DNA from: Tubulanus polymorphus
Taxonomy: Eukaryota; Animalia; Nemertea
NCBI RefSeq assembly: GCF_964204645.1
Contig: NC_134031.1
Coordinates: 6,324,001 to 6,388,000, forward strand
Reading direction: 5' to 3'
DNA length: 64,000 nt
Numbering within the stretch: the stretch's first letter is position 1; each line of letters starts with the position of its first letter. Both the position numbers and the translations under genes were made by a program. This document shows positions 29,001-63,513 of the stretch, in pieces. The notes under the pieces were generated by a model. That model had not been told where the DNA came from. It worked only from the letters and a program-made list of their open reading frames with translations, and did no database searches.

Positions 29001-30513
29001 AAACGCTGGTCAGACGAAATCACGAGAACGGACATTCGTATTTACAAGAACAATACAAAGTGCTGTGCTATTACACTCCGGAATTAAGCGAAGAACAGTG
29101 CAAAGTGGCCGTGCGGGCTCAAAATAGGAGCAAAAACCGCTACGACGCGATAATTCCGCCCGATGCATACCGACCGGTGTTGAAAACGCCGGGCGGGGTC
29201 AATCGCACCGATTACATCAACGCGTTGGTAATCGATAGCTTCCTTGTACCGATGGGATTTATCATAACGCAGACACCTCTAGCCGCAACCGTCATCGACT
29301 TCTGGAAGTTGGTGTACGATTATAACGTAAGAACGATAGTGACCATGCACGATCACACCTTCAAAGACGATACGGTCGTCGACTACTGGCCCAGCGCCGT
29401 CGACACCGCCGAGCGACAAGGACCGTTTTTCGTCAGCGTGAAAACGATCGTCAAAGAAAAAGAGTTCGTCTTCTCGCGGCGGATGAATCTCACGAATTCT
29501 CTGAAACCGAACGCGAAAGCGCGCGAAATTAAGCAATTCCAGTTTTCCGGTGAGTGGCACATGTACGACAAGGTGCCCAGGGACAGGGAGGCGATGGTAC
29601 AACTGCTAGAGACTGTCATTCAGCACAGAACGCATCACTCGATCGGGCCCGTTTTGGTGCATTGCGTCGATGGCGCCGGGCGAAGCGGTATGTTCTGTTC
29701 GCTGATGAATCTGATCGAAAAGATGAGAAATGACGAATACGCTGATGTATTCCATACGATAAAACACATCAAGAGACGAAGGCCTCAAGTGGTCAATGAC
29801 TACGTAAGTATCAAGGGCATATATCATCCGGTGTATAGGTATTGAACTTACCTGAAACAATACGTGGCTGTGATCTACGTTCCACTGCTGCAAACTTCGG
29901 TTATCGGACGTTAGTCGACTATTTGCAAACTAAGTGAAACCGAACGTTGGTTTTGGTCGGAAGGATAGTCAGGAAATAGCGAACTACGAGCACGCTGATA
30001 CCAGACCTAGCATGCCTAGATAATTCGAATTGCCTATAATAAAACAGTGTAACAGTATATAGTAAATGAACAGCAATATTCACGTTATACGTATTATCTT
30101 TGCAGGAAATGTACAAGTTTGTTTTCAAGACTTTGTGGGACTACATCAATCTCCACATGCGAGACGCCCTTATCAGTAACAGTGGCTACGTGGCAAGCAA
30201 CAGTAATTACCGACTGTCCTCGACGAATTCGGTCGATTACACGCTGTCGAACGGTCGCTATCCCAGTCGCCTGTCGAATTCCATCATCGGCTATGACGAA
30301 CCGGACAGGTTCGGCAGCAAAAACCGGCTGTCGACTTTGGGAACTACGGCCAATTCGGCGAACTTCGATTCGTCGTCGTCGCACGGGGGCGGTAGATACG
30401 GCAGCAAGAGTCGCCTAGTTCCGCCGTCGAATACTTCGCGATTGAGCGATCGCTTTTCGTCGTCGAATTCGTTGAACATTCACTCACCAGCTAAAGCTAA
30501 TTATTACGCCTAA
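17037..30513 (+). CDS. Receptor-type protein tyrosine phosphatase (EGF-like repeats, multiple FN3, TM, tandem PTP D1/D2)
   Basis: Signal-peptide exon 17037-17109 (MKYSLFFLTISFVGLELLPL); EGF-like exons from 17456 (TCPPGIFGPRCELQCHC) and 18386; many FN3 exons between about 18922 and 26657 (WDRP, WDDPP, WTAPKNPNG, WSEPISPNG). Exon 27332-29803 carries RRRR, the TM helix, D1 (KNRF..LPYDHSRV, YIAAQ) and D2 (KNRY, HCVDGAGRSG). Last exon 30106-30513. Not every internal exon boundary was verified. Confidence 0.9.
18652..18826. repeat. Interspersed repeat with an inverted copy at about 46915-47085
   Basis: cagacccggcagctatagaagtgaagtgattacaaattttattg matches the reverse complement of caataaaatttgtaatcagttcacttctatagctgccaggtctg. 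Confidence 0.75.
19430..20155 (+). mobile_element. Non-autonomous Helentron/DINE-1-like element (HINE)
   Basis: 5' TTTTTAGCCCAC, a (CGTC)n microsatellite, three internal tandem units of about 158 bp (19656, 19815, 19972), and a 3' subterminal CCAAGTGGGC followed by ...CCCTAGTT. Confidence 0.75.
20575..20679. mobile_element. Short palindromic Harbinger-like MITE family B
   Basis: ccag(c/t)tccacagt.gtgagttagagttaactc core; further copies at about 23516-23605 and 35843-35952. Confidence 0.6.
25943..26196. mobile_element. Palindromic MITE family A (copy 3)
   Basis: Same arms and central gactatt/aatagtc palindrome as the 14644 copy. Confidence 0.65.
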
Positions 30514-47000: not shown

Positions 47001-48230
47001 ATTATGATTCTTTTAAAAGCAATGTACAGGGTAGGCGGCCACCCGGGTAAACTTATAAGCACAGCAGAAAGGAGTAACAAGGTTTAAATTTTTTTAGCCT
47101 AACATGAAGATAGAGATATTTCTGTCATATTAATTGCTGCCGGAGATAGGAAAATTTGCCTTGGTTAGGCCATTGGCGTATTCATTCAGAATTTCGAAGT
47201 AATTCATTAAGGGCCATTTATATGTTCACTTGCATGACTGAACTATTCACATTCTTAGGCGTAAAAATGTTTGAATTTGAATAAATACATCAAGACGCAA
47301 AGCTTGTATGTAGACCTACCTCGTTTTCAGGGGAGTTACACAAATCAACTTGTTCACTCGTTCAACAACTCCAGCGACTGATGCATGCAAGTTTTCATCT
47401 TGAAGATATGTTCCATGACCTCTACAATGAAAACAAAAATTATTAAAAAATGCAGATCTCCTCCTTCGCCTATTCTTTCCAAATTTTGACAAAAAAGCGC
47501 ACATTCCTATGTAGTTAAAACATTTGATTGGTTTTCAGTGAGCTGGGTGGTCTAGTGGTATGATGCTGATATGATGTATGATAATTTACTGGCCCGGGTT
47601 CGAGTCTCGCTCTATCCGCTCTATTTTCTCTAACTCTGTTCTCCACACTTGCCGTGAATTTTCGCGCACCCTAGTGCGCATACGCAACATGAATTGGCCA
47701 ATCAGAATGAAACGTCGTAAATATAGCTAAATTCTATGTATTTTTGATTGTCCACATTCTTTTTGGGATATTTCGCAATCAAAAATAAATAGACTGGGAC
47801 TTTAGTGTCGTCCGTCTACGGCGTTGTAAAAATAGCCAAAGCGTATAAAATGCTTACCACCAATGATTTAAGGTAACAACTAACCAAACCTAGTCAGTAA
47901 ACTGTCTGTGGTTTAGTTTCACGATCGGATATTTTCACAAACCACAAAGTATGGTATAAGCCCATCCGATAATAAAAAGCTTAACACCAACGATTAGGCA
48001 ACTAACGTTAAAACTAACTAAACCATGAGTATGACAGACATGAGTTTTTGAACTGCTGAAATTGATTTGAATTGAATCACGTAAGCGCAACATTTACTGT
48101 GAAATTCGGACCTCATGAAGCCAGTATCAGTCGTGATTACATCTCCTGGAGTTACCAGATGTAACGGTTCCTCTAATTCCTCGCCAACTGCCTTTTTACG
48201 GCGGTTTCCGAAAAAACGTACGTCCACCAT
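44014..48230 (-). CDS. EXOSC2: Exosome complex component RRP4
   Basis: [17 protein letters not shown]|GHGTY...[22 protein letters not shown]|[12 protein letters not shown]...RRRSEEDE...[25 protein letters not shown]...; stop at 44014-44016. Confidence 0.95.
47538..47620 (+). mobile_element. tRNA-like head (degenerate SINE)
   Basis: A box TGGTCTAGTGG and B box GGTTCGAGTC; no convincing cloverleaf. Confidence 0.45.
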
Positions 48231-48480
48231 ATCGATAATACTTGAAAATGTGTGATAATCGACTGAACTACCGCCTGGTGAGTTATTTTGGAGTTAGTCA
48301 ATTCAATGCGTTCAATTTTATTTTCATAAGTAAACGGCGGGATCTTATGAAAACTATAGTTTAACGAACATATGTAAGGACTTTTTAGAAATTATTTTGA
48401 GTACGGATCCGCCTCTCAGAATTCTGCAAAAACCAACAAATTAAAAACATTTTTAGTCTTCCTTCGCGTTTTCATCATTA

Positions 48481-48675: not shown

Positions 48676-49859
48676 GCAATTAACAAAAAAAAACTAGTTT
48701 TTTTTTGCTATGTCCCTCATCATTATTTCCAATCTAGGAACTTGCAAAAGTTTTGTTAATCTCAATTTTCAGTGATTTGCAAAAAACGTTAAAGTTGCTT
48801 TCATTTTCCCATAATTTTAATCAATTTTAATGTGAGGTGAGCGGGTCTTACAGTCGTGTTGGGTTCGATTATTCGTTGCGGGACGACTGCCGTATTCGAA
48901 TATGGAAGTGTGTTTGTATACTTTTGCCCGGTTTTTTTTGTGGAACGGAGGCCTGTGACAACAGAATTTAACTTGCTGACAGACGGTCAGCAAGTGGCCA
49001 GGAACAAATCTGAACAGTACCCGCTCGATTTCTTTTCCGCCCTCGGTCGTTTCGTGTTGGTTTTGTCGCGTTGCAAGTCAGATACTCCAAGTAAGGACAA
49101 CGGACAGGAGAACCCATCAAAAATCTCGTAACGGCGAAAACTACGGCGAGATCGAGGAAGCTGTTACGTTATCTCCTTTTTAAACTGTTTCTACAGTTCT
49201 CCCGAGATTCCGAGGGTAATGCCGGCAAGGCTGGCGCTTTCTTCCGAGACAGGAGTGAGTGCATTCGCAGTGATCTCCATCAATGATCTGTGTATCAAAC
49301 CCGCATTTAGAATTTATAGTTGGGTTTACAATCTAGTCATTATTTGCTACATTCTTCCTCCCAACCATAACTTTAATACTTTGCTGGCCGGGCCGTTTGA
49401 ACATTCCCACTAGTATATTCCGAAACTTTACATAAACAGCACATAAACAAAAAAGTTCAAGAAAGAATCGTTTACTGATATTATAGAGCAAACTTCCTCA
49501 TTGGCATTATCCATTCTCTGCGGTCTCGCGCCCGTCTGTCAATACATTGCAAATAATAAACAACAAAACAATGATCATAACTGTAGTGGTCGCTCGTGAT
49601 GACGATTTAGATCCTTTTTTCAATGGCGCCAATTTTGTGCGATCTGAGTCTGGTGGCTTTCATAGAGAATGGGAAAATTAGCAATCATAAGGGCTAACAT
49701 TGGACCAAACGACACTGCAACATAATACCTAGATCTAGTTGCAGGTGGAGCGGGTTTTCTTATATGGTGGATTTCCAGCGACCCGTCGCATTTGTTGGGC
49801 TTGTATCCCAAAGTCGTTTGGCTGCGAATAATCCCGTGGTATCTCCAGATCACCGATAT

Positions 49860-50220
49860 TAAGAAAATAATTACAAAGGCGTAAATTTCGTTTTAGTGAT
49901 CCGATGGCGCACAAAAAGGGAACATACAAATAGATCACTCTGTCGGTAGATATTGCAGGAATGAACATTACCCCTGAATTGCAAAGATGTTCCATATGCA
50001 TTCGTAATGTCGGTATGTAAAATCCGGGGTAGACATGCAATCCTTCCATTCTCAACGCCAATTCTCCCTTTAAAATATAGTACGACGCAAACCTTACAGT
50101 AAAGTAGAAAAACGAACACAACAAGTATAGAATATCAGCTGCGGTGTTAGATTAAAAGACGAAGTAAATTGAAACAGGAATTTGCGACACTACTTCTATG
50201 TCACGTTTTAAAAGACGGTA
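49860..50220 (-). pseudogene. Degenerate class A (peptide-type) GPCR fragment
   Basis: Translation PVSIYFVF*SNTAADILYLLCSFFYFTV (TM2-like) ... HLCNSGVMFIPAISTDRVIYLYVPF (TM3 with a DRY-like motif); in-frame stop and no intact ORF. Confidence 0.4.
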
Positions 50221-50980
50221 ACCGTATTCAATCTAAATATGTACGTCTTTTGCATGTACAATAATTATTTCAGAAAGCGTCCGATGGTAAACATATCCGA
50301 TGGTAGATGATACATGGGATGAGAGTTCTTAATCCTGCGTAAGGAATGTAAAGACAATTGCGATTACTCTTTCTCGACACAGGTCGGTTTTTAGGAAAGC
50401 ACTCCATGCAGTAACTGATTCCGCCAAACGAAATGCGACACTCTCGCCACTGAGAGGTTTAGCCCTCTGCACAACTTCCAGCTTATGACAGACTAGGTGA
50501 CGCAGTTGACACTTTAAGACAGATTCGCCGACCAATATGATCAGATGAATGTATTTTTTCGCCGAATGTTCGCCAATATAACGATTCATCGCGGGCGAAT
50601 ATGAAATCCGAAAGGTCGGTGTTGACATCCACATTTCATCTATTTCATTGTTCTATCCGAAAAATAAAACATTCTATCGTGTGTGTTGTTCAGGATTTCT
50701 GTCGAAATCGTTAGTTAATTCTCCTCTCCTATAGTTTTGGACTTTCATTGGGCCCCCGATCCGTTCGGTGGCAACAATCGTGACAATGACGCCGTCTACA
50801 TTCATGGTCGCTTCGATCAACTCTTTTCGGGATTTCCGTCCGGTGAAACAGCACAGCCAGAAATTGATTCACGTACATCAACATCGCTGAAATAGCTTGG
50901 ACCAGAATCGAAAACTGTTCAAAATCGAGTTGTCGGTATACAGTAAACGGGAGTAGTATAGTCAGAGGGGGGTTCTGGCA

Positions 50981-51380
50981 CAGCTAACTTTTGGGCTAAC
51001 TGTGCTAATGTGAGCTAACTTTGAGCTAATGTAAGCTAACTTTTGAGCTAATCTGAGCTAACTTTTGAGCTAATCTGAGCTAATGTCGGTTAACATCTGA
51101 GCAAACTTTTGAGCTAATCTGAGCTAATGTTGGTTAACATCTGAGCTAATCTGAGCAAACTGTTGAGCTAATGTGAGCTAATATCGGTTAACATCTGAGC
51201 TAATTTGAGCTAATGTCGGTTAACATCTGAGCTAATCTGAGCTAACATTGAGCTAATGTGAGTGAATGAATGTTAATACCGAGCTAATGTGAACTAGTTA
51301 TCGGGCTAATGTCTATGTGTTATATGGAGCTAATGTGGGTTAACTATTGAGTTAGCTATTGAGCTAATGTGTGTTAATGT
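50981..51380. repeat. Subterminal GAGCTAA(T/C) tandem array in the Polinton left TIR
   Basis: Roughly 30 degenerate 10-11-bp units (tgagctaatc, gagctaactt, ggttaacatc). Confidence 0.9.
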
Positions 51381-52479
51381 TGTGCTGATGAGGGTTAACA
51401 GCGGGTTGTTTATACTATTTCTGGTATATGAGTAAATTTCTGAAAGTATTGTGAAAGGGGGTACAGTAAAATCTGATAGAACAAAGTATATGTTATAAGT
51501 ATGGTATGATGATGTAATTATTTCGAGTGTTAATTAAACAGGGGAGACAAAACTATAAGTATAGCAAGATATTTTTTATTGAATGTGTCTGAAATGAATT
51601 CAACAGACAGGTGTGGATGTGATGGTGAATGTAGTCGAATAACAATAGGGGCTAACATGATAGTTGGGATATGCATCGAACCCAGATGACCTGTTAATGA
51701 GAATACAGAACAATAACACTCCGGTGTAATTTCGAGAGTTCCCACCGACGGTAATGGCATTTTTTCTCTTTATAATCTTCATTATGAATACTGGGTTCAA
51801 TGTGATTTATTAGGTTTTGCTTCCGAGAATACTATCATAAATGAATTTATCGTCGGACATCTGTATTGAAACTCCCTGTTCTTTTCAAAAAGTAATGTGT
51901 TCAGAAGGTATTATCTGTTTGTTTTATTCGTTTCTGTTGATGACTGTTTGACTGAATAGATAGTAATATAGATTTTCTACTCTGATGACCATCCCGGTGG
52001 TAAACCGTGAGAAAGTTTGAATATTCTCTTAACAGGGGGGTAAAACAGACATAGGTGGAGTGACAGTATTTAAAGAAACAATGAAGATCAATCACGTGAT
52101 TTAAAGTAGACCAATGGTATGATTCTGTGGTAACTTAAAAATTACGTTGATTGGTAAATTTTAACATCCTATTGTTGATCGAACATTTAAAAATGCCGAC
52201 TACCGCAGCACGGTCTTTTTCGTTCCAACGCGCCGAAGTATCCAACAACGCAGAACCACGCTATCGTCATCATCATCATCATCATCGACATTATCGTCAC
52301 CAAAGGAGACTAAGGAAAGAAAACTCATTTACTAAGGTAAGCTACGTATTATTTTCCTTAATTCTACATAATTCTTTTGTTTAGATATTCTCAATGTGAA
52401 ATATGTATACTCGTTATCGAAATTTTTGCATTGTATCGAAAAATATTTTACAATTTTTATCAATTTTTTAAGATGAAAT

Positions 52480-52947
52480 TTACATTCTAATGAAATACTT
52501 GCTAACAAATTGTTTAACATAATAATCATTATACTCGTAATCAGTTTTACTAAAACTACTGAATATCTCGGGAAAACACATACCGTGTGAGAGAAGAGTT
52601 ACAAAATATATGCAATAATATCCGCAATTCGTACTAAACAAACTTTGTACTCTAACTCGAGAATAATCCCAGTAATGACAGTGTGTATCTAAATAGTTTC
52701 TTAATATAATATTATAGAATTGCGGTTGTTGTCCGTAACTATCTAGGAAATAACCTTGTTTATTTGCAAATATTATAAAACAAATCCAATGTTCTCCGCT
52801 CTTATCACTATTTTGAGAGTTTACAATGAAAATACTGGGATACTCAGGAGGTTCGGGTAAACGATCAGCTGCGTAGACACCTTTAAACAATTTGTTCGCA
52901 CAAGTATCTTCGCGCAAAATATTAATTAATTGATCGGTATACAACAT
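52480..52947 (-). CDS. Adenain-like cysteine protease (Polinton PRO)
   Basis: Probable start MLYTDQL at 52947, 4 nt after the MCP stop; catalytic motifs GEHW, FLDSYG and VQSLFSTNCGYYC. Confidence 0.92.
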   Translation of the reverse strand: MLYTDQLINILREDTCANKLFKGVYAADRLPEPPEYPSIFIVNSQNSDKSGEHWICFIIFANKQGYFLDSYGQQPQFYNIILRNYLDTHCHYWDYSRVRVQSLFSTNCGYYCIYFVTLLSHGMCFPEIFSSFSKTDYEYNDYYVKQFVSKYFIRM

Positions 52948-52951
52948 CTTT

Positions 52952-54271
52952 TTAAAAATCTGTGACAACAGTGCGGTCTTTTGTAATTTCCAACACTTCA
53001 TCAAAGTTGGCGTATAATAGTAAATTAATATTTTCTGGTAGAGGTTTTGAAAATTCCAATTCCACGCGAAGGGAACCCTTTTTACTGATAGCCAGGTCAC
53101 TGAATCCGAAATCCGGTGTCAGATCGAATGCGGTTAGGAAATATCCGTTAGCATAATCTTTTCTGGTTATTCCAATTGTCTTATCTTGATATAAAATACC
53201 GGTGCCAGTGAACAATGAGAAATATCCTTCACTCAAGTCTTTCGACTCGAAATTTATTGCCGACGCTTCAACTTGCGACCCATTGATGGACACCGCAATT
53301 CTAGTGATATCATAGTGTTTAAAGTCGAACGGGTTTTTATCGTAACTTCCACTCAGCGATTCGTCCGAGCAGAATCCGATAATTATATTCCTCGGTAAAT
53401 TTCCAATTATCAGATTATCTCTTATAACACTGCGTACTCCACGTGGTATATTCACCGGAAAAATGCTTGTTTTTACAAAATGGTATTTGGCATTACTAGT
53501 AGCCAATGCTTTCTCATGCGCTAACTGAACTGACGGGCTTAGTTGTACTCGTCGCACATTTAATGTAGCGTTTTCAATTTTCACTTTGAACTTTACGTCT
53601 GGATTCGGGGACATTAAACAAAATGCATCCTTACTTCTGATTAACTTAACTTTAACCGTTACATTCGAGAGAAGTAGTTTATCTAGTCCGAACGCATCGC
53701 TGTGTAATCGAAGTTGCGCTTTTACGAGATTGTTCGGCTTTTTCAGTAAATCATAACGTTCTTTGAGACCCGAGTTACAATTCGCGCTTCTAGGATCTGT
53801 ATCGTTCATACGCCCGGCTTCGTCTTTATATATCATAGCACTTTCCATCCATCCCGGTTTCGTAGATGATTGACAAAATATCAAGTTCTCAATAGCGGCT
53901 CTAATCGGGTGTAAGTCCATTCCATTACTAATTAATTTGTCGTTGAATCGTACCTCGACGTCACTGAATAGTGACTGAGCGTAATTAATAAGGGTAGCTA
54001 CGGGATCATCTGCTTTGTCATTGTTCATCGGACTGCCATCGCCCTTTACAATTTTAAACGTTGCATCTAACCACGTGTGGTTTAAATCTAGATAATGTTG
54101 TGAGTTACCGGTTATAAGAAAATCGATATTTCCGCTATCCGTAATTGTAGCTAACGGTTGATATTTAGCATAATGTGCGGACTCCATAGTGATATTAGTC
54201 ATCGGCAGTGAAAAGATGTCCAATTCACTCTTGAGTGCAGGGTGCGAGTCTTTGTGTACTTTCAAACCCAT
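52952..54271 (-). CDS. Polinton major capsid protein (double jelly-roll)
   Basis: 439 aa; KSELDIFSLP, YLDLNHT, GSYDKNPFDF, GYFLTAFDLTPD and GSLRVELEFSKPL are typical Polinton MCP motifs. Confidence 0.9.
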   Translation of the reverse strand: MGLKVHKDSHPALKSELDIFSLPMTNITMESAHYAKYQPLATITDSGNIDFLITGNSQHYLDLNHTWLDATFKIVKGDGSPMNNDKADDPVATLINYAQSLFSDVEVRFNDKLISNGMDLHPIRAAIENLIFCQSSTKPGWMESAMIYKDEAGRMNDTDPRSANCNSGLKERYDLLKKPNNLVKAQLRLHSDAFGLDKLLLSNVTVKVKLIRSKDAFCLMSPNPDVKFKVKIENATLNVRRVQLSPSVQLAHEKALATSNAKYHFVKTSIFPVNIPRGVRSVIRDNLIIGNLPRNIIIGFCSDESLSGSYDKNPFDFKHYDITRIAVSINGSQVEASAINFESKDLSEGYFSLFTGTGILYQDKTIGITRKDYANGYFLTAFDLTPDFGFSDLAISKKGSLRVELEFSKPLPENINLLLYANFDEVLEITKDRTVVTDF

Positions 54272-54334
54272 GTTATATCAGTGTTGATGTTGGCGATAAC
54301 AATGAAGATGTTAACAATGATAACGATCAGTTAA

Positions 54335-54727
54335 TTAATATGCTTCCAGGCTTTCGATTGTTCCACGTTGACGTTTCACCCGACGTCTATTCGACTTCGA
54401 TTTTACTTTACGTTTTCTCTGATTATTCGGGGCTTTTAATACATTTCGAACGGCTGTTTTACCGTTATTCAATAACGATTCTCCTAGATCTCTTCCACCA
54501 ATGACGTCACCTATTGTGTTGACACCGGCTTTAACTATATGTGGTGCTGCTTTCTTTGCAATTGTCTTAAACAAAGGGATCGCTCCCCTGAATAATCCTC
54601 CCAGAATAGATCCGATTCCTGCTCCTTTTTGTATCGGTCTACCGTGATAGAAATCATTCCCGCCACCCGCCTGCCGTAAATAATAATTACAGCAAGCGTC
54701 TTGATCTATGATACATTCGGTTTTCAT
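54335..54727 (-). CDS. Polinton virion core / membrane-active protein
   Basis: YYLRQAGGG...QKGAGIGSILGGLFRGAIPLF followed by a basic C-terminus; lies between mCP and MCP. Confidence 0.8.
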   Translation of the reverse strand: MKTECIIDQDACCNYYLRQAGGGNDFYHGRPIQKGAGIGSILGGLFRGAIPLFKTIAKKAAPHIVKAGVNTIGDVIGGRDLGESLLNNGKTAVRNVLKAPNNQRKRKVKSKSNRRRVKRQRGTIESLEAY

Positions 54728-55536
54728 AGTAACAACTTTCGTCTAAAATGTAACACGAGGGATACTTTGCCCCTTTTAAAGATGGGCGGAGTACCACTGT
54801 CCTTAAACATATAGATTTCAATAACGTCCAGTCGATTACTCCTGAGCGGAAGATAATAAGGTCGTCTAAATTCACGATCTATAACTGTTTGATTTATATC
54901 GTTTACACCTACAATCCTTAACAAAGGTGCGCTATCGTGTCCAACTTGTTGATGTTGAATTAACTCTGAATAGATTAAGATGTTATGATTATCGGCCATA
55001 AGGTCGACCGGTCTAGACGCTATGACCTCGACGTAGCCGAAGTTATCGGATGAACTTGCTTTTCCTATGATTTTAGTTTCGGTAATATCATCACTAAAAA
55101 TGTCGGCGTCGACTACATGCATCGAAGGGAAGCCCAACACCCAGGCTAATTCCTTCCTGAACTTAATTTTCGCGTTAGCGGATAATCTAATCGAAACTCG
55201 TTGGCTTATCTCATTATACATTAGTTGTATTTTATTCGCTGCCGGTGATCGCGTTATAACCGAGTTCACATGTTCTATCAATGTTTCGATATTTCTATAC
55301 ACACCGCCTGGCACGCTATACGCGTCACTCCATTGTCCATCACCAGAGTCCACATAAAATTCTCCAGTAATTACGTTGTCGAATTCGCAATTGAAATTTA
55401 TGTGAACTAACGCGACTTCCCAATTACCTTCTAGGTTAATCGTCCCTCTCAATTTAACTTTAAACTTTTCTTGAGAGTTTCCTGGAAATTCATCCACGCT
55501 TCCATCGCTCAATAATGTTAGATAAAAGTCATGCAT
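54724..55536 (-). CDS. Polinton minor capsid (penton) protein
   Basis: FYLTLLSD...WEVAL...IYSELIQHQQVG..APLLR...LVLHFRR single jelly-roll signature. Confidence 0.88.
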   Translation of the reverse strand: MHDFYLTLLSDGSVDEFPGNSQEKFKVKLRGTINLEGNWEVALVHINFNCEFDNVITGEFYVDSGDGQWSDAYSVPGGVYRNIETLIEHVNSVITRSPAANKIQLMYNEISQRVSIRLSANAKIKFRKELAWVLGFPSMHVVDADIFSDDITETKIIGKASSSDNFGYVEVIASRPVDLMADNHNILIYSELIQHQQVGHDSAPLLRIVGVNDINQTVIDREFRRPYYLPLRSNRLDVIEIYMFKDSGTPPIFKRGKVSLVLHFRRKLLL

Positions 55537-56623
55537 TCTTCTTCTTTAGTTCTCGTGCCGGAATCCACGAATTGAATTTCGTCGGGTATCCCAACCACTT
55601 CACGAGCAACTCGCGGTTTCTTCCTCGACCGCGTCTTCTTATAATCTTCTCCACTCGGTAAACATCGTCGTTTTTAATTACTTTTTGTAATTCGTGACGA
55701 TAGAATTGTCCCTGAACCTGCTCACCCATTTGATCTATAACGTTATATGTCGGTGGGTTGTGCGGGATCTGTTTTGAAACCGAGAATATTTCGTGCGACC
55801 ATCCGGGTAAATAACCCTTGTCGAAATCTTTCTTATATCTTGCGATTCTGACGGTATCCCCAATAGAAAACTTGTACTGTTTGTTCATAAGAGACTCTTT
55901 TCCGTATAGGTTTTCCCACACCAACTTCTCATTATTTTCACTAACTTGAGACGGGTTCATTTTTATCGACCTATGATACGAATTGTTGTAGGCATTTATA
56001 ATCTTAGGAAGAACATCTATATAGGTTTTCGTCTTGTACGCGGTCATATAGCGGAATAATCTTCCCTTTAACGTTCTGATGAATCGCTCGACAATACTAC
56101 ATTTCACTGTATCCTCGCTCGTAAAGTGATGAATGTTATACTTCTTTGTTATCTTACTAAAATATGCATTCAAAAATTCTTTGCCCTTATCACTTTGAAC
56201 TTTTTTCATACGACTTTTAATCGCTATACCTTCGAATGCGCTACTAACTTCTCCACCATTTTTCGACTTTAGGGGTATGGCGTAAGCGAATTTAGAAAAA
56301 ACGTCGATCGAAACCAGTAGATATTTAATTCCTTTATTATACTTAGATATATTCGATAAATCACACAAATCGATTTGATGCTGTTGATTGATACCGGATA
56401 CTATTGTTCTATTCCTCTTGAAACGCACGCGAGTAGGACGATGAAGCGTATATGCCTCTTGCGATTTCAGAAAGTCTCTAATAACGTCTATACCAATTTC
56501 ATTTCCGGACAGCTTCGCGGCGCGATGTAATGCATTCAAACCACCGAATGCGCTTGGGTTTTCTGGGTTGTAGTACAGGTTGTTCAGTATCTTTTTCAAG
56601 TCCGAGGTCAGGCGAGTCGACAT
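55529..56623 (-). CDS. Retroviral-like (rve) integrase with C-terminal chromodomain
   Basis: YYNPENPSAFGG; DDE triad in QIDLCD / QSDKGKEF / IVERFIRTLK; chromodomain YRVEKII...LVKWLGYPTKFNSWIP. Confidence 0.95.
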   Translation of the reverse strand: MSTRLTSDLKKILNNLYYNPENPSAFGGLNALHRAAKLSGNEIGIDVIRDFLKSQEAYTLHRPTRVRFKRNRTIVSGINQQHQIDLCDLSNISKYNKGIKYLLVSIDVFSKFAYAIPLKSKNGGEVSSAFEGIAIKSRMKKVQSDKGKEFLNAYFSKITKKYNIHHFTSEDTVKCSIVERFIRTLKGRLFRYMTAYKTKTYIDVLPKIINAYNNSYHRSIKMNPSQVSENNEKLVWENLYGKESLMNKQYKFSIGDTVRIARYKKDFDKGYLPGWSHEIFSVSKQIPHNPPTYNVIDQMGEQVQGQFYRHELQKVIKNDDVYRVEKIIRRRGRGRNRELLVKWLGYPTKFNSWIPARELKKKNA

Positions 56624-56733
56624 CGTCTTTCACTTTTGACTGTTGCACACAACACGAAATGTTGAATTTTTTACAATTAATGTTAATGAGCGATTGCGGT
56701 AAACAATCAGACTTCATCATTTCGTTATCCCGA

Positions 56734-57270
56734 TTATTCACACATATGCATATTGAACAACACATGCGGCAACACCGAAATCATCTGCTTTAAAGATTTA
56801 CACCCGCTAATAATCACACATCCCTTATGTTGTATTATAAATGTAACATTTCCACAGCGAGATATGAGGCTGGGGGTGATCTCCGGATCATATCGCCCAC
56901 CTAATAACGTGTGTAGTTGGGATAAGTTAACTTTAATTCCCGTTCTCGCAACACCTGTCATTGTTTGAATTTTAAATTCTGTCAATCTAACGGCGGCAGT
57001 GGTATTAATCTTTTGTATCAATCTAGCAAATCGTCGCACACTGGTATAACTCTCGCTGGATGACTTTGCTCCGTTACATACTATTCTCCCGCTTGCGAAT
57101 AATAGACACGTGCCCCTGATGCGCTTATTCCTAAGAATTAATGCGTTAAATTTACGAGGGTTGTACACTACGTTTGACATTGTCCTAGACAACTCCTCTA
57201 GATTGAGCTTACAATTAAGATTTGCAGTCGCTACTACATTAACAACGTCGATCATTTCTGATGTTACCAT
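56734..57270 (-). CDS. TATA-binding protein (TBP)-like protein encoded within the Polinton
   Basis: 178 aa, core only. VVNVVATANLNCKLNL, YNPRKFNALILR, LLFASGRIVCNGAKS, RRFARLIQK, FKIQTM, YDPEITPSLI and GCVIISGCKS align with both TBP repeats; intronless. Confidence 0.9.
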   Translation of the reverse strand: MVTSEMIDVVNVVATANLNCKLNLEELSRTMSNVVYNPRKFNALILRNKRIRGTCLLFASGRIVCNGAKSSSESYTSVRRFARLIQKINTTAAVRLTEFKIQTMTGVARTGIKVNLSQLHTLLGGRYDPEITPSLISRCGNVTFIIQHKGCVIISGCKSLKQMISVLPHVLFNMHMCE

Positions 57271-57536: not shown

Positions 57537-58274
57537 TCACATATAAATCCAATTTTCGAAATCTATATCTTTAGAATTTTTAGATGGCGTAGTCATCCTC
57601 CTCCTCTTCGTCATCTTTGCTTCGAATTCATTCTTAACGTTCGGGCGATTGTTAATTAATTTATTTCTAACGAATTTATTCGGGATAAACGTCTGTGGAA
57701 CGGACATATCTTGTAATGCCTTGATGAAATCGTCGAGTCCGTTCATTTGTTGAGACTTGTTAGGTGTCATGCAGAGATTGATTAAATCGACGATATTACT
57801 ATCATCTCTTTTGACACCTTTTACTATTATCTCCCCCTTATCGGTCCATGACAATATTTCGGAATATCGCTTTATTCGCTCCAATAACATTTCCGATTTC
57901 TTTCTATAGTTTTTCGGTACGTTATTCAAAATTTCCTGGTCGAATTCACTTTTAGTTTCGGTAGTTCGTTTTAAATCACGATCGGTATTCAATGCACTGC
58001 TTTTACTTACTATGTTAGAATTAGTGATCGTCGACTCCTTTGAATGTTTTTCGATTTGCATTAGTTTATTCAACGCGTCGTTATACATCTTCAATTTCAC
58101 GTCGTCCTTCACATCATTATCCATTTGAAGGATATCGGACATTTGACTTTCTATATTTTTCACGCGATTCGTTTCACCACTCGAAGATTCTCGCTTGTCA
58201 TCGGTTGATGTGATTTTTTCAATCATGGGAATAAATGATCCCGGAACAACGTAAAGTTTTTCAACGTTCTTCAT
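57537..58274 (-). CDS. Conserved Polinton protein of unknown function
   Basis: 245-aa ORF; the WTDKGEIIVKG...SNIVDLI motif and position resemble ORFs seen in animal Polintons. Confidence 0.75.
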   Translation of the reverse strand: MKNVEKLYVVPGSFIPMIEKITSTDDKRESSSGETNRVKNIESQMSDILQMDNDVKDDVKLKMYNDALNKLMQIEKHSKESTITNSNIVSKSSALNTDRDLKRTTETKSEFDQEILNNVPKNYRKKSEMLLERIKRYSEILSWTDKGEIIVKGVKRDDSNIVDLINLCMTPNKSQQMNGLDDFIKALQDMSVPQTFIPNKFVRNKLINNRPNVKNEFEAKMTKRRRMTTPSKNSKDIDFENWIYM

Positions 58275-58597
58275 TCCATAAACCCGAGTAGTCGACCGAT
58301 TCCTTTCAGTATCAGTCCAAGGAAACCGCCTTTTTGCACGATTAATGATTTTTTCGATTTAATCGGTACTCGTCTATTAGCGAGAATTCGAATCCACTTC
58401 TTATGTCGCTTCAATTTCTTTTTATCCGATTCGCTGTGTTTGATATTCCCTCTTAATGAATTTATACAGACTTCGCAAATAACTTTCACTAATCTGTTCG
58501 ACGATGATGACAGAATCGCATCGCGCATATTTTTCTTTCCATCGCATAAAAGTCTTAAGTGAGGAGCGAATTCCTTCAAATGCAAGTGGTTCCTCAT
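58271..58597 (-). CDS. Small basic Polinton protein with a C-terminal QKGG-amphipathic tail
   Basis: ICEVCINSLRGNI...KKLKRHK...IVQKGGFLGLILKGIGRLL. Confidence 0.8.
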   Translation of the reverse strand: MRNHLHLKEFAPHLRLLCDGKKNMRDAILSSSSNRLVKVICEVCINSLRGNIKHSESDKKKLKRHKKWIRILANRRVPIKSKKSLIVQKGGFLGLILKGIGRLLGFME

Positions 58598-58630: not shown

Positions 58631-59278
58631 TTATTTAATACTTTTTATCTTATAATAAATATGATATCCCTCGCTGGGAAATATTCGTGTGCGTAATCTC
58701 CATTTGTCCGACGTTTGTGGTTTGAAATCACAAAATAGATATCCACGCGGTGAAATTGAGGTCGCATCTGTAAACGCCTCCTCGAGCGATTTACCTAACC
58801 CGGACTGCATCGCTAAAGTCTTTACTTGGAGTCGATCCCTCGGATGCTTGAATAGAACTATATAATGCGTGTTTAACGATATTGTCCGAAAATGAGGTCC
58901 TCTCGGGAAAAGGGTTTGCGATATTAGAATCACTTGAAGTTTTCTATGATGACTACCACGTGTAAAAATGGTCTCCAATAATTTGGGGTCGCACTCGTTC
59001 AATACATCATCCAAAATAAGTAGTTTTGTTGTCTCTGAACCTGACAAACTTTCGTACAATTCCTCTGTTAAACCCTTAATAAACTCAACTCCCTCTGTAT
59101 CGTGATAGATTTCCTGATCTTCGGCGTACACCCAAACTATACGATCGGGAAATGGATCGAACATTCTTTCTTCAATCAATCTTTTAGTAAAGACTGTCTT
59201 CCCGATACCAGTCATTCCATTGATAATCGACGTGAACCATCCTTGCAATTTAGTCGGCGGTAAATCAGCTATTTCCAT
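58631..59278 (-). CDS. A32/FtsK-like DNA packaging ATPase
   Basis: Walker A GMTGIGKT, Walker B LLILDD, FTRGSHH, RTISLNTHYIVLFKHPRD. Confidence 0.93.
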   Translation of the reverse strand: MEIADLPPTKLQGWFTSIINGMTGIGKTVFTKRLIEERMFDPFPDRIVWVYAEDQEIYHDTEGVEFIKGLTEELYESLSGSETTKLLILDDVLNECDPKLLETIFTRGSHHRKLQVILISQTLFPRGPHFRTISLNTHYIVLFKHPRDRLQVKTLAMQSGLGKSLEEAFTDATSISPRGYLFCDFKPQTSDKWRLRTRIFPSEGYHIYYKIKSIK

Positions 59279-59400
59279 TGCCCCCTTTTACCACAGATTA
59301 ACAGAATCAAAATTAACAGCGATCTATCCAAAACACGTTCATTTTAAAGATTATTATCCACACATTATATTTATTTCTGTCTTCCTTTCTTTTTCTTTAG

Positions 59401-59942
59401 ATGGCACAGAAACAAGTATCAGAACGACTCAGCTTAGGACCAGTCGCCCTACCCAAGCGGTATGGGTGCACAATGTGCGAGCTGGTGTTCGCACACGCCA
59501 GCTCGAGATCCCGGCACATTAACCGGGTGCACAAAAAGAGTAAACCGCTTTGTGCCAAATGCGGGGAGGGGTTTAGCACGACGGCCTACCGGGACAGGCA
59601 CCAATCACGTTGTGCGAGACCCCTCCCAATCCCAGCGGCACGACGGCGACTGGTCCTTGAAGCACCGGCACCGCCAGCAGCAGCAGTAGGGGCGCCGCCA
59701 GCAGCAGCAGTGCCAGCAGCAGCAGTAGGGGCGCCGCCAGCAGCATCAGTGCCAGCAGCAGCAGTGCCAGCAGCAGTATTGCCAGCAGCAGCAGTAGGGG
59801 CGCCACCAGCAGCATCAGTGCCAGCAGCAGTATTGCCAGCAGCAGCAGTAGGGGCCCCACCAGCAGCAGCAGCAGTGCCAGCAGCAGCAGTGCCAGCAGT
59901 AGTAGGGGCACCACCAGCAGCAGCAGGGGCACCACCAGCAGC

Positions 59943-59986
<44 letters not shown>

Positions 59987-62900
59987 GGGCACCACTGGAA
60001 TGGGAATGGGAAGAGTTACCGGATCTTGATGAGGAAACTCTTGCCCTCATCGGGATCCGGCAAGGTGGCGCCTTAGAGGGGTATGTACGAAAATACGAGT
60101 TCCCATCCACTGAAAACAACAAGTTTGATTTAATTAAATTTTATAACGATATCAAACCGCATCTCATCCGACTGCTTAAAGATGATTTAAGTAGATTGGG
60201 TGGGATAAAATGGTTTACCAGCATTCATATAATTTTAGAAAAAGATATCGATGGTGTCCATCAACAAAGGACTGTGTATTTTACTAGCCACACTCGAAGT
60301 GCTTTCAATGGTGAACAATTTGACGAGCTCTTGGATCAGGCTAAGAATAAAATGATCCAATTATTGGAACAATACAATACTGAGGGTACTGGTTGGAGGT
60401 TTGATTATGTCGAAGTGTTCGATCTACACGTCGGCATATATGAACCATTAGGTGGAGGTTCGTATATACCCTCTCCTCGTGTAATCGTTTCACGAGGAGG
60501 GGTTATAAATATCCAAAATTTCGACAATATGTGCTTTCTTTGGTCTATACTCGCCCACCTCCACCGAATGGACACGAACCCCCAACGAGTATCTAAGTAT
60601 TTACGGTACAGAGACGAATTGAATATGAACAATATCAATTATCCAGTAACCGTAGAACAAATACCCATTTTCGAACAGCAAAACGATATATCAGTTAACG
60701 TATTTGCCTATGAGGATGGAAATATTTTTGTTCGTCGTTTGAGTGATAATCCACGCGCAAATCATGTTAATTTATTATTACTAGTTGATAACGATAACGC
60801 CCATTATTGTTTGATAAATGACCTTAGTAAATTCCTTTTCCATCTAAACAAAAAGAAAGCCAAATGTTTTTGGTGTTTTAAGTGCATGCACTCTTTTTTA
60901 TCGCAAGAAAATCTTGATGTTCATACTCGGTACTGTATTCAAGGAATACAAAAGACAATCATGCCACCGACAGATGAGAATGTCTTGAAATTTGTTAATG
61001 TCACAAAACAGCACAAACTGCCATATGTGATATATGCTGACTTCGAAATGTTTTTAGAACCGATTGAGGGGTGTAAATTGAACCAGAATCAATCTTGGAC
61101 ATATCGTTATCAGGTTCATGAACCGTGTGGATTTTGTTTTAAAGTCGTTGGCCCTGACACCAGACATTCCCATCCGACAGTCCTTTATAGAGGAGACGAT
61201 GTTATGAAGAAATTCTTAACATCCCTCCTCGAAAAAGCAGAGGAAATATTAAAGGAATACAAAAATCCTCAACCTTTGGTTATGAACGACGTCGATGAAA
61301 CACACTTCAAATCAACTGATATTTGTCATATATGTAAGGAAACCATAAATGGTAAGAAATGTCGGGATCACGATCATATAACCGGCAAATACAGAGGCCC
61401 AGCTTGTAATTCATGTAATCTGAGTTATAGGGTTCCTAATTTCATACCTGTGATATTTCATAACTTGAAAAGTTATGACAGTCATGAAATTATTAGATCA
61501 TTGGGCTTGGTTGAATTTAGGGGGTATAGAATTTCAGTGATCCCGACGAACACTGAAAAGTTTATCGGATTTACACTTGGTCCCCTACGCTTCATCGACT
61601 CGTTGGCATTTCTCAATACCTCTCTCAGTACTCTTACAGAAAATTTGGTCAATTCGGGTAGAGAGAAATTCATTCATTTAAACTCGGAGTTCCCCGCCAA
61701 TAAACTTGATCTTTTATTACGTAAAGGTGTTTACCCATACGACTACATGACAGGTTCGGAGAAATTTAATGAGACAAGTCTCCCTCCTAAGGAGGCATTT
61801 ACCAACACCCTGACGAACACTGAAATTTCGGTAGATGACTACAAACATGCACAGAATATTTGGTCGCAGTTTAACATGGCAAACATGGGCGAGTATCACG
61901 ATCTCTATCTTAGAACCGACGTATTGCTACTTTCAGATATTTTCGAGGAATTCCGCAAGTTCGCTCATAAGAGCTACGGATTAGATCCTTGTCATTACTA
62001 CACTCTACCCGGCTACTCATGGGATGCCTGCTTGAAACTGACAAAAGTCGAACTTCAATTGTTCACTGAAGTCGATATGTATTTGTTCATAGAACAGGGG
62101 ATACGCGGCGGAATATCTGTTATTACCCATCGATATTTCGAGGCTAATAACAAGTATTTCGCCGATTACGACGAGGCCAAGGAGTCATCTTATATCATGT
62201 ATTTAGATGCTAATAATCTGTATGGGTGGGCAATGTCTCAGGCATTGCCTGTTGGTGAATTTAGGTGGTTAGAAACAGAAAACGATCCCCTTTGGCCCGA
62301 CGCTCAGGATATTTTAACGATGACGGACGACGCCCATTTCGGCATGATACTCGAAGTGGACCTTGAATACGGTGCCGAGTTACACGATCTACATAACGAT
62401 TTACCGTTAGCTCCGGAGCGCATGTTAGTCAACGAAGATTTAATGTTATCTCCGTATCAAAAGCTTCTATTTCAGACTTTGAAACTATCGTCCAGCAAGA
62501 TACACAAGCTTATCCCTAATCTTTACAATAAAACTCGGTATATTGTTCATTATAGGAATTTGAGGCTTTACATGAAACTTGGTATGAAATTAACAAAGAT
62601 TCATCGTGTTCTCCATTTTCGACAATCAGCCTGGATGTCACCGTACATTGCTTTGAATACCGAATTCCGAAAAAATGCGAAATCCAATTTTGAGAAAGAT
62701 ATGTACAAATTACTGAATAATGCAAGTTTTGGCAAGACAATGGAGAACATTAGGAATCGAATCAACTACCAAATTATTAACGAACCGGGGAAATTGAGAA
62801 AAGCTCTAGCGAAGCCATCTACGATTTCATGGAACATTATTTCGGAGAATGTTGTGGGGGTAAAAAAACAGCAGATTTCGATCAAGTTGGATAAGCCTGT

Positions 62901-63513
62901 GTATCTTGGCTTTTCAATTTTAGACATAAGCAAAACGTTAATGTATGATTTTCATTATAACACCATCAAGGCAGGATACGGGGATAACGCTAAACTTCTT
63001 TTTACAGATACGGATAGTTTAACGTACGCTATTCGCAGCAACGATTTGTACACGGATATGGCGGGGATTTCCGACCAGTTCGACTTTTCAGCCTATCCCA
63101 CCGGCCATCCTTTATTCTCGGACAAAAATAAGAAAGTACTAGGCAAATTTAAGGATGAGACCAATTCTTTTCCCGTTAAAGTGTTCTGCGGTTTACGGAG
63201 TAAGATGTATTCAATGACATATCTTTCTCCGGATAACAACGGAACACTTGTGGAAAAGAAAACTGCAAAAGGTGTTGCGAAGTACGTCGTTAAGCAGTCC
63301 GTATCCCATAATAACTACGTTGATTGCTTGCGTAATCAATCACGTATGATGGCTAACATGCGGTCTATCCGGAGCTTCAATCATAAGTTACATTCAGTTA
63401 ATTTAAATAAAGTCGGATTATCACCATACGACGACAAACGTTATATACTAGATGATGGTGTAAGCACATATGCTTATGGTCATCATAAAATTCCGGAGAT
63501 AAATCATCATTAA
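59401..63513 (+). CDS. Protein-primed family B DNA polymerase (pPolB) with N-terminal zinc fingers and an EndoVII-like insert
   Basis: 1370 aa. ExoI IYADFE, ExoII FHNLKSYD, ExoIII YLRTDV; polymerase motifs YLDANNLYG, KLLNNASFGK and TDTDS; CHIC..RDHDHITGKYRGPACNSCNL (HNH/EndoVII-like). Confidence 0.96.
59660..59995 (+). repeat. GCA/CCA-rich coding repeat encoding an Ala/Pro linker in pPolB
   Basis: Repeated PAAAV(G/P)APP units and a poly-GCA (poly-Ala) run; GC-rich relative to the rest of the element. Confidence 0.9.

Follow-up and report, generated by a model that had tools for sequence, protein, structure and literature searches.

A divergent TATA-binding protein gene in a Polinton of Tubulanus polymorphus: a candidate late-promoter factor for host RNA polymerase II

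Polintons carry no RNA polymerase. What, then, would one of them do with a gene for a TATA-binding protein (TBP)? The question arises from the window, a 64,000-nucleotide stretch of the Tubulanus polymorphus genome, in which a TBP-family reading frame lies within a Polinton with the following features.

50952..51400, strand not assigned: probable left end of the element, starting with AGTAGT, which we take to be a Polinton end, and continuing in short tandem repeats.
52480..52947, minus strand: adenain-like cysteine protease (Peptidase_C5, E 0.0011, under cut-off), the second ATG being assumed as its start.
52952..54271, minus strand: putative major capsid protein, 439 aa, without a Pfam match, 26-34% identical to ORFs in five related loci.
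54335..54727, minus strand: basic ORF130, whose start overlaps the minor capsid stop.
54724..55536, minus strand: putative minor capsid protein, 270 aa, without a Pfam match, its start overlapping the integrase stop; the name is our presumption from position and similarity.
55529..56623, minus strand: retroviral-type integrase with a C-terminal chromodomain, 364 aa (Pfam rve, E 2.9e-9; Chromo, E 1e-8; both above cut-off).
56734..57270, minus strand: core-only TBP-family ORF, 178 aa, or 173 aa when counted from M6; its first repeat is canonical and its second carries N159T/F190T/V203T/F207Q/T215S.
57537..58274, minus strand: ORF245, whose start overlaps the ORF108 stop; one relative, in locus L005.
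58271..58597, minus strand: basic ORF108, conserved in related Polinton loci.
58631..59278, minus strand: putative packaging ATPase, 215 aa (Pox_A32, E 0.003; Adeno_IVa2, E 0.012; both under cut-off), 32-46% identical to ORFs in five related loci.
59401..63513, plus strand: protein-primed PolB with motifs DANNLYG, KLLNNASFG and TDTDS; its sole Pfam match is Endonuclease_7, with none to PF03175.

The minus-strand cassette runs ATPase, ORF108, ORF245, TBP, integrase, minor capsid, ORF130, major capsid and protease, with PolB divergent on the plus strand. As an earlier note on this DNA had it, the TBP gene is co-oriented with the integrase (55529-56623) and ORF245 (57537-58274) and lies between them. 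The same note called ORF245 a conserved Polinton ORF: it does stand beside TBP, but its conservation is thin, with one match among related loci (L005, 29%). Membership of the Polintons is indicated by the PolB motifs and by rve and Chromo matches above cut-off; the ATPase and protease matches are under cut-off, and the ATPase and capsids are conserved in related loci. The window has one probable end of the element, on the left. No inverted-repeat partner of the left end occurs among the 25 of 34 inverted repeats listed, and the right end lies beyond the window. The other cassette ORFs are intact, as TBP is. The 90% cluster of the major capsid protein includes a Tubulanus polymorphus record on another long contig that differs by one residue, and a second recent copy or allele of the element exists.

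Several further features of the region were recorded. ATGA-type stop/start overlaps at 54724-54727 (minor capsid-ORF130), 55529-55536 (integrase-minor capsid) and 58271-58274 (ORF108-ORF245) link these genes, and the same overlaps are present in L005. The genes downstream of these overlaps mostly have no near box of the kind described below, which suggests translational coupling. At the PolB N-terminus (59401-60050) a pair of C2H2-like zinc fingers is accompanied by an Ala/Pro-rich repeat with periods of 54-69 bp, and PolB aa 638-674 form an endonuclease VII-like zinc motif. In the adjoining part of the window (49620-50652, minus strand), the left end stands ~300 bp upstream of an ORF at 50329-50652, near host-gene exons at 48018-48293; the element may have inserted close to a host promoter. 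Farther away, a host receptor-type tyrosine phosphatase (27332-29845, plus strand) has an 837-codon open stretch that spans a transmembrane segment and both phosphatase-like domains, its upstream exons being short.

The TBP frame (56734-57270, minus strand) is intact, with neither stop nor intron. The earlier note had described an intact, intronless, core-only 178-aa TBP homologue and proposed a Pfam search as a check; the description is borne out, with PF00352 matching well above cut-off (E 1.4e-33; 115 bits, cut-off 22.9) in two stretches that are the two TBP repeats. All PDB sequence matches (35/35) are TBPs or TBP fusions; identity to cellular TBP is ~31%. Because the nearest relatives begin at the residue matching M6, M6 is probably the true start, giving 173 aa.

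TFIIB contacts stirrup residues of TBP, and TFIIA contacts helix 2. In yeast numbering, anchored on alignments to known TBPs with an offset of 60 that we assume for chain 1tbp, repeat 1 of the element TBP retains N69, V71, F99, L114, F116 and V122, with T124N changed; repeat 2 retains P191 and carries N159T, V161T, F190T, V203T, L205I, F207Q and T215S. Helix 2 keeps R137, R141 and K145, with K138R, Y139F and K133Y changed. The earlier observations that repeat 1 keeps both Phe and a basic helix 2, and that repeat 2 has lost both Phe and its Asn, are confirmed residue by residue. Of the four intercalating Phe and two central Asn of a canonical TATA-binding TBP, two and one remain, respectively. 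An acidic TFIIB stirrup had also been reported as kept. Half of it is retained: E188 is unchanged, and substitutions at the flanking positions (E186D, L189I) make the stirrup D-P-E-I rather than the canonical E-P-E-L; in the nearest relative, P0031, positions 186, 188 and 189 are N, D and I. E93 is V here and E in 7/86 family members.

Structure prediction, which the earlier note had proposed with TFIIB, TFIIA and DNA, gave a normal TBP saddle for the protein alone. AlphaFold2 with a 26-row alignment gave a pLDDT of 96.3, as against only 37 from the single sequence, and the predicted fold superposes on human, plant and yeast TBP structures with TM 0.91-0.93 (0.92-0.93 for human and plant TBP, 0.92 to 1cdw) and on human TBP-DNA structures with an rmsd of 1.1-1.3 Å. 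Viral TBP models in BFVD reach TM 0.7-0.77 (at most 0.77) at 12-19% identity, and the model is nearer to cellular TBP than to any BFVD entry.

Is this protein a peculiarity of one element? A full-library search gave 4106 matches at E 0.001, and the best 150 of the 4106 were listed. In a quick tree of 162 cores, the element TBP falls within a 27-row clade of core-only proteins of 162-210 aa (SH-aLRT 98). Among the top 64 new ids of a profile search, alignment placed 59 more rows in the family, which then comprises at least 86 clusters of core-only TBPs. Megabase contigs carry the 198, 84 and 66 members of some of these clusters, many of them truncated, as would be expected of transposon copies. 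Across the 86, F116 is conserved in 84, R137 in 82 and R141 in 84, and position 188 is acidic in all 86. Asn159 is retained in none (T 81, S 3, A 2). Both repeat-2 Phe are kept in 56; F190 alone is lost in 14, F207 alone in 11 and both in 5 (one of them Y/Y). Since 0/86 keep Asn159 and the 5/86 that lost both Phe include P0031, the Asn loss is a family trait and the double Phe loss a conserved subclade trait.

P0031 is 53% identical to the element TBP and has QTM, the F190 loss and the exact IQHKG in common with it. The two proteins are identical at 46/84 positions of repeat 1 (55%) and 36/73 of repeat 2 (49%); the family norm at similar distance is 51% and 46% (419 pairs). Judged from these alignments, repeat 2 is remodelled rather than decayed, and the earlier word 'degenerate' does not hold for a repeat whose divergence from P0031 is within the family norm. 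That a once-useful or passenger gene is decaying in this element seems very improbable: key residues are lost and the dN/dS values given below come from relatives only, but the frame is intact, the same losses recur in P0031, repeat 2 is no more divergent than is normal for the family, and the remaining cassette ORFs are intact.

Other core-only TBPs came to light in the same searches. P0007, considered as a close relative, was rejected and belongs to a separate family (P0007, P0010-P0029; ~170 aa) with the opposite asymmetry, F116 of repeat 1 being Tyr and repeat 2 canonical; one member is named from a tardigrade assembly, and the viral-contig scan yielded no genomic context for the P0010 family. 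P0246 and P0258 are near-canonical core-only TBPs with clusters of 88 and 30 members on contigs of 9-260 kb, possibly a separate multi-copy capture. A word-index search with the element TBP gave only 7 distant TBPs. Viral-contig scans with the element TBP, the capsid, the P0010 family and an alignment of the element TBP with P0031 gave no matches, and neither did a prokaryote genome scan.

The genomic company of the family is more informative. A metagenome scan gave 51 loci, of which 21 were counted as family (L001-L020, L025); L021 (a split match), L022-L024 and L026-L051 were not. A co-oriented match to the element integrase, at 33-48% identity, is present in 19/21 family loci, the other two being 1.1-kb contigs. 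Nine of these 19 also match the capsid or ATPase (tblastn), and L017 bears a PF03175 PolB. The other 30 metagenome loci and 41 viral loci match none of the non-TBP proteins of the element; the viral loci, considered as family relatives, were set aside as other TBPs without Polinton neighbours. TBP and integrase trees of 17 elements (L015 dropped) agree on most of their shallow groups, namely L001-4, L008/9, L005/6/10, L012/17 and L013/14/16. L007/11 form a clade in the TBP tree only. Nei-Gojobori dN/dS is 0.07-0.22 in all 20 relative pairs with unsaturated, non-zero dS, of 37 listed; these pairs are of relatives only, the element's own TBP being in none. The earlier suggestion that TBP-like ORFs should be sought beside Polinton integrases elsewhere is answered by the 19/21 loci, and a one-off capture is contradicted by a family of at least 86 clusters, the integrase linkage and the dN/dS of the relatives.

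PC4, which binds single-stranded DNA, also has a place beside these genes. PC4-like genes (PF02229) adjoin TBP at L005:1321-1806 (E 1.5e-17), L013:261-800 (E 3.2e-15) and L015:255-716 (E 0.008), making up 3/9 of the TBP-neighbouring ORFs scanned, and a TBP+PC4 transcription module in relatives is possible. None was seen in the part of the element within the window.

The origin of the gene had been sought in capture of a host TBP mRNA. An LG+G4 tree built from 37 of 57 rows unites the family in one clade (100/99), which sits with other fast-evolving short TBPs and outside animal TBPs. It lies outside the animal group in three trees, these being quick trees and the one LG+G4 tree, all without any TRF2; a TRF2 motif look-up gave one protein, which resembled a divergent TBP. 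Recent host capture is unsupported for a gene whose family is old and separate from the animal TBPs. Yet constraining the family with six animal TBPs costs 34 log units at p-AU 0.07, so a sister relation to animal TBPs is not rejected by this test, and long branches make the placement unsure.

What might such a protein bind? Related elements have a TATA-like box, YRTAAGAR, 25-70 nt before the start of the integrase in 14/18 ORFs, of the minor capsid in 8/8, of the major capsid in 2/4, of ORF108 in 2/3 and of the ATPase in 1/3. In the same zone it precedes 0/17 TBP genes and 0/1 ORF245 of the related loci. The shuffled rate is 1.2%, and L006 and L016 were dropped from the box counts as near-duplicates. 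In relatives, 63 boxes lie on the gene strand against 4 on the opposite strand, and the stop codon of a called upstream ORF falls within 19 of the 63. Distances from box to ATG (28/75 at 30-48 nt, 6 shorter) fit TATA-to-start spacing. Upstream of the relatives' TBP genes, TATAWAW occurs in 4/17 and CCAAT in 7/17, the latter being as common before the integrase (7/18).

The first two bases of the box follow the TBP lineage: TA in L001-L004, CA in L005-L011 and CG in L012-L017. Residue 203 is T in 6/6 full-length TBPs of the CG lineage and N or H in 12/12 of the TA and CA lineages. In the available text of PMC1636458, the C-terminal TBP repeat binds the 5' half-site, wild-type TBP cannot read G at position 2, and yeast TBPm3 (I194F/V203T/L205V) does read it. 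The Pro191 rule in the same text (PMC1636458) fails for position 1, as L001-L004 are without Pro191 yet have T1, and L012-L017 have Pro191 yet C1. The element TBP has T203, and the element's own boxes admit G at position 2. With only 3-4 clades, the covariation of box and TBP is not independent evidence.

The box might instead be read by another factor, whether host TBP, another element protein or the late polymerase of a helper virus, with the TBP doing something else. YRTAAGAR contains RTAAG, the baculovirus late initiator; TATAAGAG and TATTAAAT resemble ordinary TATA boxes; and many boxes overlap stop codons (19/63). We nevertheless regard another reader as unlikely. The 28/75 distances at 30-48 nt, with few below 30, are as for an upstream TATA-like element, and in this element the 25-70 nt zones of the nine cassette genes contain no YRTAAGAR. 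In addition, CGTAAGAA would be a poor site for wild-type TBP, which is blind to G at position 2 in the available text of PMC1636458.

In the element itself, the following candidates were found upstream of cassette genes.

53023-53030, minus strand: further copy upstream of the protease, TATTAATT at -83.
54309..54340, minus strand: candidate boxes before the major capsid gene, TATTAATT at -69 (holding the ORF130 stop) and TGTTAACA at -45.
55636-55643, minus strand: family-type TATAAGAA before the minor capsid gene, at -107, a match of a kind that chance can give.
56675..56688, minus strand: candidate box before the integrase gene, CATTAACA at -65 and CATTAATT at -59.
58633..58640, minus strand: candidate box before ORF108, TATTAAAT at -43.
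59296..59318, minus strand: candidate box before the ATPase gene, TGTTAATT at -40 and TGTTAATC at -25.

The nine cassette genes have no YRTAAGAR within 25-70 nt, the nearest being at -107 of the minor capsid and -131 of ORF245. A different hexamer, YRTTAA, stands before the four free-standing non-TBP genes (ATPase -40, ORF108 -43, integrase -59/-65, major capsid -45/-69), and ORF245 and the protease have further copies, at -73 and -83 respectively; the TBP, minor capsid and ORF130 genes have none. It is the only YRNNNN hexamer common to all four free-standing genes. In 1000 dinucleotide shuffles, to be read with the limits that this AT-rich hexamer was picked by eye before testing (post hoc) and comes from four genes of one element at mixed distances, YRTTAA was common to the four zones 0 times and any YRNNNN 15 times (zone 30-70) or 2 times (30-60). 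For a wider motif class, zone 30-70 holds 67 common hexamers (TTAAT variants) against a mean of 4.6, and zone 30-60 holds 6 against 3.1, with 8/100 shuffles as high. YRTTAA is at background in relatives (integrase 2/18), and scans of viral contigs and prokaryotes found no DNA of P0031 or its subclade for replication. As the element's box, YRTTAA is a lead from one element. Ten further minus-strand copies lie in the 1.5-kb left end, where the subterminal tandem repeats (50995-51400; periods 10/22/54 bp) hold it several times on that strand.

Within 200 nt upstream of the element's TBP, no TATA, CCAAT or E-box was found, and for this reason the term 'early promoter' is limited to some relatives. 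The TATA-less viral promoters of the earlier note give way to a TATA-like variant box, YRTAAGAR in relatives and, as a candidate, YRTTAA here.

We favour, at somewhat better than even odds, the reading that the element TBP is an element-specific late-promoter factor for host Pol II that reads a private TATA-like box. The direct results behind it are the intact gene, its family membership, the integrase linkage with tree congruence, purifying selection in relatives, and a box with strand bias that precedes late-type genes but is absent before TBP. Travel with the integrase and purifying selection in relatives speak for a functional TBP, carried by the element and probably redirecting host Pol II, as the earlier note had it; function is argued from the family, and the mechanism that follows is put conditionally. 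The TBP would be made early and would then bind the TATA-like box that precedes the genes for capsid, packaging and integration. Once bound, it would recruit host TFIIB and Pol II; it would thus resemble herpesvirus ORF24 in its work, but would use the ordinary TFIIB route suggested by E188 and helix 2, possibly with TFIIA. A single kink at the box would be made by the intact repeat 1. The remodelled repeat 2, whose counterpart reads the 5' half in cellular TBP, could explain YRTTAA here as against YRTAAGAR in relatives, and a box switch where the TBP lost both upstream-side Phe would fit a changed 5' readout. If this late-factor reading is true, the element TBP would prefer YRTTAA over YRTAAGAR, TATAAAAG and scrambled DNA.

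The main objection comes from analogy. In the accessible text of PMC12529657, all four Phe of KSHV ORF24 are required for late activation, and the element TBP has two; Giardia TBP, in which three Phe are replaced, shows a preference for single-stranded DNA in the accessible text of PMC12209930. The apparently weakened stirrup (E186D; N/D in P0031) and the loss of E93 also count against a late-promoter factor.

The Giardia precedent (PMC12209930, in the same portion) could be taken further, the subclade protein being a single-strand or structure-specific DNA binder that serves replication or genome ends and not promoters. The ten YRTTAA on the minus strand of the left end and the PC4 genes that adjoin TBP in relatives would suit such a role. 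It appears distinctly improbable, as the model is a normal saddle at 1.1-1.3 Å from human TBP-DNA and the boxes stand before genes.

A decoy or repressor would forgo productive promoter binding and titrate host TFIIA, TFIIB and other TBP partners through the convex face. Loss of the repeat-2 Phe pair and Asn159 while helix 2 and E188 stay is what this would predict, and TRF2, which lost an intercalating Phe, cannot bind TATA (PMC10005294, available text). We consider a decoy rather unlikely. Repeat 1 retains N69, F99 and F116; both repeat-2 Phe are kept in 56/86 family members; the unchanged IQHKG in P0031, which is 53% identical overall, suggests constraint on the DNA face; and the box, with its absence before TBP, is left unexplained. 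A late-promoter factor that acts through the box remains the reading we prefer.

Set against known systems, the protein resembles cellular TBP (PF00352; human 1cdw, yeast 1ytb) in its predicted two-repeat saddle, repeat-1 N69/F99/F116, basic helix 2 and E188. It differs in having no N-terminal extension and no intron, in the replacement of N159, V161, F190, F207 and T215, in its ~31% identity and in its separate clade. Large TBP-bearing dsDNA viruses mostly bring their own polymerase. Nucleocytovirus and mirusvirus TBPs share the virus-encoded TBP fold, whereas those viruses, unlike a Polinton, are large; viral TBPs occur in at least seven large dsDNA virus families in the accessible text of PMC11410667, and in Cymbomonas mirusvirus-like elements TBP is sporadic, as far as the available source text goes. 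TRF2/TBPL1 and Giardia TBP have likewise lost intercalating Phe (available text of PMC10005294 and PMC12209930), but they are cellular genes, and here the loss is confined to repeat 2 of a gene in a mobile element.

The closest functional parallel is the beta/gamma-herpesvirus vTBP. KSHV ORF24 imitates TBP and directs host Pol II to TATT, a variant of the TATA box (PMC12529657, accessible text). Like the element TBP, it has a polar DNA face; Asn occupies its T124 position, just as here, and its V122 position, just as in 25/86 family members. Unlike it, ORF24 has 752 aa, binds Pol II directly and needs five partner proteins and its four Phe (same portion of PMC12529657); ORF24, BcRF1 and UL87 are multidomain proteins with a Pol II-binding N-terminal domain and four Phe, and the element TBP is a 178-aa core with two. 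Across the family, Asn at the V122 (25/86) and T124 (38/86) positions parallels N485/N487 of ORF24, and convergence of viral TBP DNA faces is possible on this alignment.

Starrett et al. 2021 (PMC8502044) label a gene as TBP in a polinton-like element, a MELD virus whose PolB is adintovirus-like. In the available text, that TBP is a Fig. 5 legend abbreviation only, in a section on non-animal datasets and without family, residues or promoter; 'promoter' has 0 occurrences there, and TBP has 0 matches in the one supplement searched. Because of this 'TBP' label, the novelty of a Polinton TBP is lowered. TBP, TATA and TFIID have 0 occurrences in the accessible text of PMC11131425, PMC8097293 and bioRxiv 2026.06.19.733378. 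In the searched literature, beyond whose reach lay subscription papers, Repbase, figures and bioRxiv supplements, neither a family of Polinton TBPs nor a box belonging to it was found.

A wider proposal is put forward only tentatively: that an animal Polinton lineage uses host Pol II for a minimal transcription programme of two stages governed by a private TBP, with repeat 2 and the box (TATAAGAG, CATAAGAR, CGTAAGAA, YRTTAA) changing together. This element, with one Phe pair, would be the extreme case, and the family a natural library of altered-specificity TBP-promoter pairs. The timing of Polinton capsid genes bears on their status as self-sufficient viruses, and a conserved TBP with a defined box brings that timing within reach of tests on a single 20-kDa protein and a motif of 8 bp. 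The lineage-specific boxes are natural tests of the TBP-TATA recognition code, including the need for both Phe pairs. If the late-factor reading is true, the viral-TBP strategy of herpesviruses and giant viruses would extend to elements of 15-20 kb.
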